Assembly (NCBI GenBank): GCA_944392545.1
Contig: CALXWW010000008.1
Span: 323-64,322 of the forward strand
DNA length: 64,000 nt
Source of the DNA: an uncultured Clostridia bacterium
Lineage (GTDB): Bacteria; Bacillota; Clostridia; TANB77; CAG-508
Direction: 5' to 3'
In this document: one piece after another, positions 16,250 through 16,288 of the stretch
How the letters are laid out: each line of letters starts with the position of its first letter
Numbering within the stretch: the stretch's first letter is position 1
Made by a program: the position numbers and the translations under genes
Notes under the pieces: generated by a model
Database searches by the model: none
What the model was told of the DNA's origin: nothing
Seen by the model: only the letters and a program-made list of their open reading frames with translations

Positions 16250-16288
16250 TGTAACAAAAACTTAATATTATTGTAATATTATTGTAAT
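16250..16288 (+). promoter_or_regulatory. Phased direct-repeat array TGTAAC-N5-CTTAAT-N5-TGTAAT-N5-TGTAAT (11-bp period), WalR/OmpR-family-like response-regulator site, ~90-130 bp upstream of the cpaB-like start
   Basis: Read directly from the sequence; the same architecture occurs at 32772..32810. Confidence 0.4.

Follow-up and report, generated by a model that had tools for sequence, protein, structure and literature searches.

Phased hexamer arrays at five loci

The stretch analyzed here, referred to below as the window, comprises 64,000 nucleotides of chromosomal DNA from an uncultured Clostridia bacterium of the gut (contig CALXWW010000008.1; 28.6% GC overall and 23.8% GC in intergenic DNA). 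It carries AT-rich hexamers repeated with a period of exactly 11 bp at five loci, located upstream of a Tad-like, pilus-like operon (site 1), of sepF-divIVA (site 2), of rsmD (site 3), of ftsK (site 4), and of a gene for an 85-amino-acid protein (site 5). Nearly all genes of the window are on the minus strand, and the arrays are therefore best read on that strand. In gene orientation the hexamers are of two types, A (RTTACA, the reverse complement of TGTAAY) and B (RTTAAD), and they are numbered from p1, the hexamer nearest to the -35 element, up to p5.

A preliminary description of this DNA had placed a 39-bp array at 16250-16288, ahead of a minus-strand pilus-like operon. The plus strand reads exactly as described, TGTAAC AAAAA CTTAAT ATTAT TGTAAT ATTAT TGTAAT, and the array does precede the Tad-like operon (5999-16161). 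A fifth hexamer (CTTAAT in gene orientation, 16239-16244) lies beyond these 39 bp, giving site 1 the order A-A-B-A-B (16239-16288, minus strand), with ATTACA at 16283-16288, ATTACA at 16272-16277, ATTAAG at 16261-16266, GTTACA at 16250-16255, and CTTAAT at 16239-16244, separated by 5 nt each. Four nucleotides past p1 begins the weak -35 hexamer TTGTAT (16229-16234) of a putative sigma-A promoter (16206-16234, minus strand), followed by a 17-nt spacer and the -10 hexamer TAAAAT (16206-16211). This promoter scores below the threshold of the consensus scan, and its orthologs read TTGTTT or TTGAAT, N17, and TAAAAT. Only site 1 contains a perfect 15-bp inverted repeat (16230-16244 / 16261-16275), which is centered on hexamer p2.

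The four-hexamer twin that had been reported at 32772-32810 (site 2, minus strand) uses the same hexamers with different spacers (A-A-B-A; ATTACA-N5-ATTACA-N5-ATTAAG-N5-GTTACA). It lies upstream of sepF (32196-32678) and divIVA (31713-32162), both on the minus strand and recognized by the Pfam models SepF (2e-23) and DivIVA (2e-35). The -35 hexamer of the sepF promoter (32729-32757, minus strand; TTGACA-N17-GATACT) begins 14 bp past p2, across an A-rich stretch that measures 13 to 15 bp in the orthologs. Site 3 (31540-31597, minus strand) precedes rsmD (30919-31479, minus strand; Cons_hypoth95, 4.5e-52) and has an A-B-A-B core formed by ATTACA (31573-31578), ATTAAA (31562-31567), GTTACA (31551-31556), and GTTAAT (31540-31545) with 5-nt spacers, whereas a distal pair, ATTACA (31592-31597) -N5- ATAACA (31581-31586), is 2 bp out of phase with this core. 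The rsmD promoter P2 (31508-31535, minus strand; TTGACA-N16-TAAAAT) begins 4 nt past p1. Further upstream lies a second promoter-like sequence, P1 (31621-31649, minus strand; TTTACA-N17-TATAAT), whose transcript would cross the array. The tandem P1 and P2 resemble each other (80% over 25 nt), and P1 is found in the closer relatives only. Across sites 1 to 3, a sigma-A-type -35 hexamer follows the end of p2 at 13 to 15 bp and that of p1 at 4 bp, which places the hexamer centers near -42, -53, -64, -75, and -86 if transcription starts 7 nt past the -10 element.

Variants at 31551-31597 and 30193-30209 had also been described as WalR-like, and both are present, the second being weakly conserved. 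It corresponds to site 4, an A-A pair (ATTACA-N5-GTTACA, 30193-30209, minus strand) and a weak member of the set, situated ahead of ftsK (27706-30105) and 14 bp upstream of a TTTGCT-N17-TG-n-TATAAT promoter (30150-30178). Site 5 (46923-46961, plus strand; GTTACA-N5-ATTACA-N5-GTTACA-N5-ATTACG) adjoins spoVT and consists of three A hexamers and the variant ATTACG. Read toward the minus-strand gene of the 85-amino-acid protein (46514-46771), it presents TGTAAY three times, an orientation opposite to that of sites 1 to 4, and it lies 77 bp upstream of the promoter of that gene (TTGATT-N17-TATAAA, 46817-46845). The possibility that it drives a plus-strand promoter antisense to spoVT was rejected, as no acceptable -10 element occurs at the proper distance. 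A second copy of site 5 (49166-49204, plus strand) derives from a 269-bp target duplication (46816-47084 / 49059-49327). The earlier estimate that the sites lie 75 to 135 bp upstream of minus-strand start codons was about right, the proximal hexamer being 72 to 94 bp from the ATG or TTG at four sites.

The frequency of the motif in intergenic DNA relative to a shuffled expectation had been proposed as a refuting test, and it came out far above that expectation. Nine matches to TGTWAH-N5-TGTWAH occur in the whole window (1.8 expected), and all nine are intergenic, where 0.24 would be expected under a dinucleotide Markov model of the 7.4 kb of intergenic sequence (11.6% of the window). Under the same model, the stricter TGTAAY pair was observed 7 times in intergenic DNA against 0.018 expected. 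Two of the nine TGTWAH pairs represent one duplicate from the insertion sequence target duplication, so that 7 are independent, spread over the five loci; each locus has at least one exact pair, and site 5 has three TGTWAH hexamers in a row. The 39-bp pattern, with up to 3 mismatches allowed, matches the window three times (16250, 31551, and 32772) and the shuffled sequences 0.00 times. The spacings from one TGTAAY to another in the window concentrate at 11, 22, and 33 bp. For an empirical comparison, only 8 exact pairs and no arrays turned up in 422 kb of loci drawn from Clostridium sensu stricto and elsewhere. Arrays occur in about 5 of the approximately 25 intergenic promoter regions of the window, and none was found in the window at the gap, eno, spoVT, spoIVB, rpoA, or ribosomal-protein promoter regions.

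Conservation of the arrays in related genomes

Conservation in related genomes was the other refuting test that had been put forward, and the arrays of rsmD, sepF, the Tad-like operon, and the gene of the 85-amino-acid protein proved to be conserved. Relatives were collected by an RsmD scan of the GTDB species representatives, which gave 80 loci, and the rsmD promoters of the low-GC clade were aligned as 41 distinct sequences whose RsmD proteins are down to ~46-52% identical. All 41 sequences align free of gaps from hexamer p4 to the -10 element, with the consensus TaTTACA.AA.TgTTAAAT.TaTATTACAATT.tgTtAATacTATTGACaT...ATAAAATA. RTTACA occupies p2 in 41/41 sequences and p4 in 39/41, and RTTAAA occupies p3 in 39/41; the rare bases, the C of TTACA and the G of GTTAAA, hardly vary. 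Upstream of p4, 30 columns are essentially information-free and serve as an internal control for neutral divergence. No arrays were found upstream of rsmD in the Clostridium sensu stricto loci examined.

At sepF, the strict A-A-B-A array followed by TTGACA is retained in 15/23 sequences and recognizably degenerate in the remainder. The site 1 array is kept in four related loci (L207, L208, L210, and L211), in which the downstream protein is 67 to 77% identical, while in a fifth relative an insertion sequence sits between the array and the operon. The cis-element is thus conserved more tightly than the neighboring proteins at both site 1 and rsmD. The three TGTAAY hexamers of site 5 are kept in L220 to L222 and in L166, and the DNA between them and the promoter has diverged; in L166 they form a reverse-oriented A-A-A array (3112-3139) upstream of a 103-amino-acid homolog of the 85-amino-acid protein. 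Another reverse-oriented A-A-A array lies in L101 (~1365-1392, reverse strand) between divIVA and a gene for a 314-amino-acid coiled-coil protein. Only the three closest relatives (L007 to L009) retain the ftsK pair; it is lost in L011, L012, L014, and L048 though the promoter persists, and we rejected it as a conserved member for this reason.

Within the species, hexamer changes stay inside the motif, being A/G at position 1 and T/C at position 6. The three TGTAAY hexamers of site 5 vary solely by T/C at position 6, and the fourth hexamer changes from CGTAAT to CATAAT in one contig. Three unrelated promoters have one architecture in common yet differ in their spacers and downstream sequence, which suggests selection at the level of the motif rather than duplication.

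A search of the metagenome collection for TTACA-N5-RTTAAD-N5-RTTACA-N13-16-TTGACA returned at least 146 matches in at least 120 loci. Among the matches listed, 64 precede sepF and 63 precede rsmD, 16 resemble rsmD promoters with no open reading frame called, and 3 precede other genes, namely, an FHA-domain gene followed by ftsW/rodA, a gene for an Amidase_3 peptidoglycan hydrolase, and a SocA/Panacea gene. The two cell wall matches (FHA-FtsW/RodA and Amidase_3) are suggestive and could be due to chance. The predominance of sepF and rsmD among the matches listed indicates that the A-B-A architecture combined with TTGACA marks, in this clade, essentially just two operons, which adjoin each other. 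The lineage itself has been recovered only as metagenome-assembled genomes, from the guts of humans, mice, rabbits, chickens, and termites.

Candidate regulators and competing explanations

Taken together, the exact period, the lack of indels, the conservation of C and G positions, the fixed distance to the -35 element, and the recurrence at several unrelated promoters speak for a protein that reads the DNA head to tail along a single helix face. Such a protein, acting just upstream of -35, would match the anatomy of OmpR/PhoB-family operators. We infer that the arrays are bound by a protein, that it belongs to this family, and that it has an activating effect; from sequence features, we give a probability of roughly 0.55 to the arrays being operators for one winged-helix response regulator of the OmpR/PhoB family. 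The direct-repeat architecture of this family, which had been invoked from the start, finds support in the 11-bp period, the fixed -35 distance, the 41 indel-free sequences, and the conserved G and C. Repeats of the expected kind (~6 to 7 bp, direct, on one helix face at a 10- to 11-bp period) are present, and their placement beside or over the -35 element is fixed at sites 1 to 3, with site 5 (77 bp away and reversed) as an exception. The OmpR sites F1-F2-F3 and C1-C2-C3 and those of Bacillus subtilis PhoP consist of tandem half-sites at 10 to 11 bp that extend from ~-100 to -40 and abut the -35 element; their half-sites, GTTACA-like ones among them, are of unequal affinity and are filled hierarchically. 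The arrays resemble them in having several tandem half-sites at this spacing that reach -35. They differ in organism and regulon, and also from PhoP boxes (TTHACA x4, with A, T, or C as the third base), which replace the -35 element, in that a canonical TTGACA is present; a B. subtilis PhoP box was rejected given the RTTACA/RTTAAD hexamers and the separate TTGACA.

We hypothesize that each regulator monomer would read one hexamer, RTTACA being a strong and RTTAAD a weak site, and that dimers arranged head to tail would advance along one helix face in steps of 11 bp. Binding probably starts at the upstream A-A pair, and the weaker B sites would then be filled cooperatively. At the Tad-like operon, sepF-divIVA, and rsmD, rows of 4 to 5 hexamers would be covered from ~-90 to -40, ending beside the -35 element, a position from which the protein, once bound, could touch RNA polymerase and stimulate transcription. 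The weak -35 hexamer TTGTAT at site 1 fits such a dependence on an activator. In kind, the element would be an ordinary transcription factor operator, seen here in an unstudied group. It predicts a regulon that joins septum assembly genes with a pilus-like operon, and it provides a defined DNA probe for DNA affinity purification sequencing (DAP-seq) or electrophoretic mobility shift assays (EMSA) with candidate response regulators.

Within the OmpR/PhoB family, WalR (YycF/VicR) is a reasonable candidate on motif grounds, and we tentatively consider that the binder may be its ortholog. WalR sites follow the consensus TGTWAH-N5-TGTWAH, for which work on Streptococcus mutans gave the refined form TGTWAHA-N4-TGTWAHA (PMC4168254). 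Staphylococcus aureus WalR sites function in either orientation, and a location upstream of -35 goes with activation (PMC10746227); this tolerance of orientation would accommodate the reversed site 5. WalRK is stated to be present in all Firmicutes (PMC9210968; bioRxiv 10.1101/2022.04.01.486798). Two TGTWAH direct repeats with a 5-bp spacer occur at all five loci, and the A hexamers also fit TGTWAHA, with A mostly following. The likeness extends over the hexamer, the spacer, the seventh base, the activating position, the use of either orientation, and, less firmly, a link to division and the cell wall. The earlier assertion of a WalR match holds for the A hexamers (TGTAAY) and fails for the B hexamers that alternate with them, which lack the G.

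Several observations weigh against WalR or against the OmpR/PhoB assignment as a whole. At rsmD, sepF, and site 1 the conserved half-sites are not all TGTWAH: the B hexamers, which read TTTAAC, ATTAAC, and CTTAAT in the WalR orientation, equal the A hexamers in conservation, one or two non-TGT hexamers are retained in the sepF and site 1 arrays, and the conserved A-B-A-B core of rsmD holds no canonical WalR pair. Arrays of 4 to 5 phased units with a conserved RTTAAD at every second unit are untypical for WalR, whose canonical site has two hexamers. The genes concerned (sepF-divIVA, ftsK as a weak member, rsmD, the Tad-like operon, and the gene of the 85-amino-acid protein) differ from the classic autolysin set, and no array accompanies a gene for a peptidoglycan hydrolase in the window. 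A Pfam search of ~50 open reading frames found no response regulator gene in the window, SpoVT being the sole DNA-binding regulator, and a tblastn search with a B. subtilis WalR sequence found no match in 1.84 Mb of loci. The consensus TTGACA at the sepF and rsmD promoters may mean that an activator is not needed there. Similar AT-rich half-sites are recognized by many regulators (ArcA, TGTTA; CpxR, GTAAA; CovR, ATTARA; PhoP, TTHACA; CtrA, TTAA-N7-TTAA), so resemblance of the motif does not suffice to identify the protein.

WalR is the Firmicute counterpart of actinobacterial MtrA, an essential OmpR-family regulator (PMC6265350). The sites bound by MtrA are 9-nt units in direct repeat placed 2 nt apart, i.e., at an 11-bp period; the half-site is reported as n-A/G-T-a-A-C-a in Corynebacterium glutamicum, and sepF and wag31/divIVA are among the direct targets of MtrA (PMC6265350). 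The arrays share with MtrA boxes the 11-bp direct repeats, a similar half-site, and the sepF and divIVA targets (PMC6265350), whereas MtrA belongs to another phylum, has GC-rich motif variants, and usually uses two repeats, which makes the likeness a functional analogy only. If WalR binds the arrays, its regulon would extend to sepF-divIVA, as that of MtrA does in mycobacteria. The arrays can also be written as TTAM-N7-TTAM, which, together with the division and Tad-like targets, recalls the boxes of CtrA. CtrA is an OmpR-family regulator of the Alphaproteobacteria that binds TTAA-N7-TTAA at an 11-bp half-site period and controls division genes and a Tad/Flp-type pilus. Its confinement to the Alphaproteobacteria makes this a resemblance of logic rather than homology. 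A rather unlikely but more novel reading is that a single lineage-specific or retuned regulator of reduced-genome gut Clostridia runs a compact cell cycle-like regulon with the logic of CtrA or MtrA, as opposed to the autolysin-centered one of WalR. This regulon would join sepF, divIVA, ftsK, FtsW, the Tad-like filament, the 16S rRNA methyltransferase operon, and the 85-amino-acid protein, and the alternating strong and weak half-sites would grade promoter output with the level of the regulator.

Among the competing explanations, the one that survives best, which we still regard as somewhat unlikely, is that the arrays bind a protein of another family, such as a lineage-specific regulator, a swapped-hairpin protein of the AbrB/MraZ/SpoVT type, a LytTR regulator, or Spo0A. 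The confinement of the arrays to one low-GC gut Clostridia clade, with none upstream of rsmD in Clostridium sensu stricto, would suit such a regulator, and the alternation of A and B amounts to a 22-bp superperiod appropriate for a protein with a larger footprint. LytTR boxes are GTTAA-like, and the B hexamers contain GTTAA. A LytTR protein would need two 9-bp boxes 21 to 22 bp apart (12- to 13-bp separation), and the sepF array has a single B hexamer; an AgrA/ComE-type operator was rejected because sepF has one GTTAA-type hexamer and the most conserved units are the interleaved TTACA. A sporulation regulator is brought to mind by the spore-forming nature of the organism, by spoVT and spoIVB in the window, and by the position of site 5 next to spoVT, but no TGNCGAA box lies inside any array, a TGACGAA in the sepF leader (32702-32708) being outside the array. 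Swapped-hairpin repressors of the MraZ type bind repeats phased at 10 to 11 bp at division gene promoters, but the TGGG or GTGG repeats of MraZ are absent from the arrays. In hexamer, spacer, and position, the arrays are closer to the OmpR-family precedent than to any of these. Two other site types were considered and rejected: palindromes or GntR-, Rex-, or TnrA-like dyads, as ACA-N4-TGT occurs in some rsmD orthologs and is not general across sites, and ScoC (RATANTATY), which matches the site 1 spacers only, without conservation elsewhere.

It is improbable that no dedicated regulator is involved and that the phased repeats act as curved DNA or as a UP-like element for the alpha C-terminal domains of RNA polymerase. 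Phased A-tracts upstream of -35 do stimulate clostridial and Bacillus promoters, and the position between -40 and -90, the helical phasing, and the AT-rich spacers would fit. The near-invariant C of TTACA and G of GTTAAA are not features of A-tracts, however, only about one-fifth of the intergenic promoter regions in the window (the ~5 of ~25 given above) have arrays, and site 5 is conserved in spite of being reversed and 77 bp from -35. Even less probable, to a degree that we would be surprised to see it borne out, is a role in RNA or as a terminator, with read-through transcripts carrying the repeats. Site 1 folds at -28.6 kcal/mol (z = -4.7) through its 15-bp inverted repeat followed by a U-rich stretch, no terminator was found between the upstream gene and the site 1 array, and a transcript from P1 would include the rsmD array. 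The arrays of sepF and rsmD, in contrast, fold no better than shuffled sequences (z = +1.5), the 11-nt period and the fixed -35 distance are properties of a DNA helix, and Rfam gave no match to the arrays, its sole hit in the window being a tRNA (38872-38943). The site 1 hairpin, which overlaps the operator and the -35 element, may in addition act locally as the terminator of the upstream DUF2651 gene. Chance repeats in low-complexity DNA, or copies of a mobile promoter cassette, might be suspected in a genome of such low GC content in which 2 of the 9 pairs are an insertion sequence-generated duplicate, but this can be dismissed with 7 to 9 pairs observed against 0.02 to 0.24 expected, arrays kept across dozens of species while their flanks diverge, and sites that share hexamers only and neither spacers nor flanks, which also led us to reject recent duplication.

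Neighboring genes and other features of the window

The first gene of the pilus-like operon (15217-16161, minus strand) encodes a 314-amino-acid protein with an N-terminal transmembrane segment. The copy in the window has no Pfam or NCBIfam match, and some of its homologs carry a CpaB-like SAF domain (PF08666). The SAF domain of these homologs and the pilin-like N termini of other products make the operon (5999-16161) look Tad/Flp-like, while no Pfam or NCBIfam model matches the operon. It also encodes two ParA-like proteins and a 695-amino-acid polytopic membrane protein, and an ATPase-like gene is split over three overlapping open reading frames (12453-13637, 12233-12535, and 11653-12261). 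Four small proteins (6588-7280, 7298-7738, 8281-8817, and 8831-9517) start with MENAxxAL followed by a hydrophobic segment, and further short membrane-anchored proteins lie between them. The DUF2651 membrane protein encoded upstream of site 1 (16292-16798, minus strand) has a Cys-rich C-terminal tail.

In the sepF leader, AATGACGAAT at 32702-32708 contains TGACGAA, the Spo0A box pattern TGNCGAA, ~20 nt ahead of the ribosome-binding site of sepF; many closer relatives share it (L007, L010, L011, L014 to L016, L018, and L020). The gene after rsmD (30477-30914, minus strand) encodes a conserved 145-amino-acid coiled-coil protein with no family match and occupies the usual place of coaD. This protein is better conserved across the clade than RsmD (65 to 100% versus 46 to 83% identity). 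The 85-amino-acid protein downstream of site 5 (46514-46771) contains internal QEIT-type repeats and has 337 homologs, apparently confined to the clade, with no family match.

An insertion sequence-like element (47085-49058) with a DDE_Tnp_1 transposase (47237-48982, plus strand) is flanked by the 269-bp direct repeat, an unusually long target duplication that includes the 3′ end of spoVT, the site 5 array, and the promoter of the 85-amino-acid protein gene. The element is absent from same-species contigs (L212 to L219), and the length of its target duplication recalls IS1634. In the 1-kb gap upstream of mutL, two mini-open reading frames of ~40 amino acids (38247-38369 and 38408-38527, plus strand) are extremely rich in Cys, Gly, and Asn. 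The presence of spoIVB and spoVT in the window predicts that the source organism is spore forming. Upstream of spoVT (49932-49993) lies a perfect 28-nt palindrome, TGAAACAAGGGGACACACAAATCGTTCC, with a 6-nt loop, which may be a dispersed palindromic element; similar GGGGACA...TGTTTCAAA hairpins are found upstream of ftsK in two relatives (L007 and L008).

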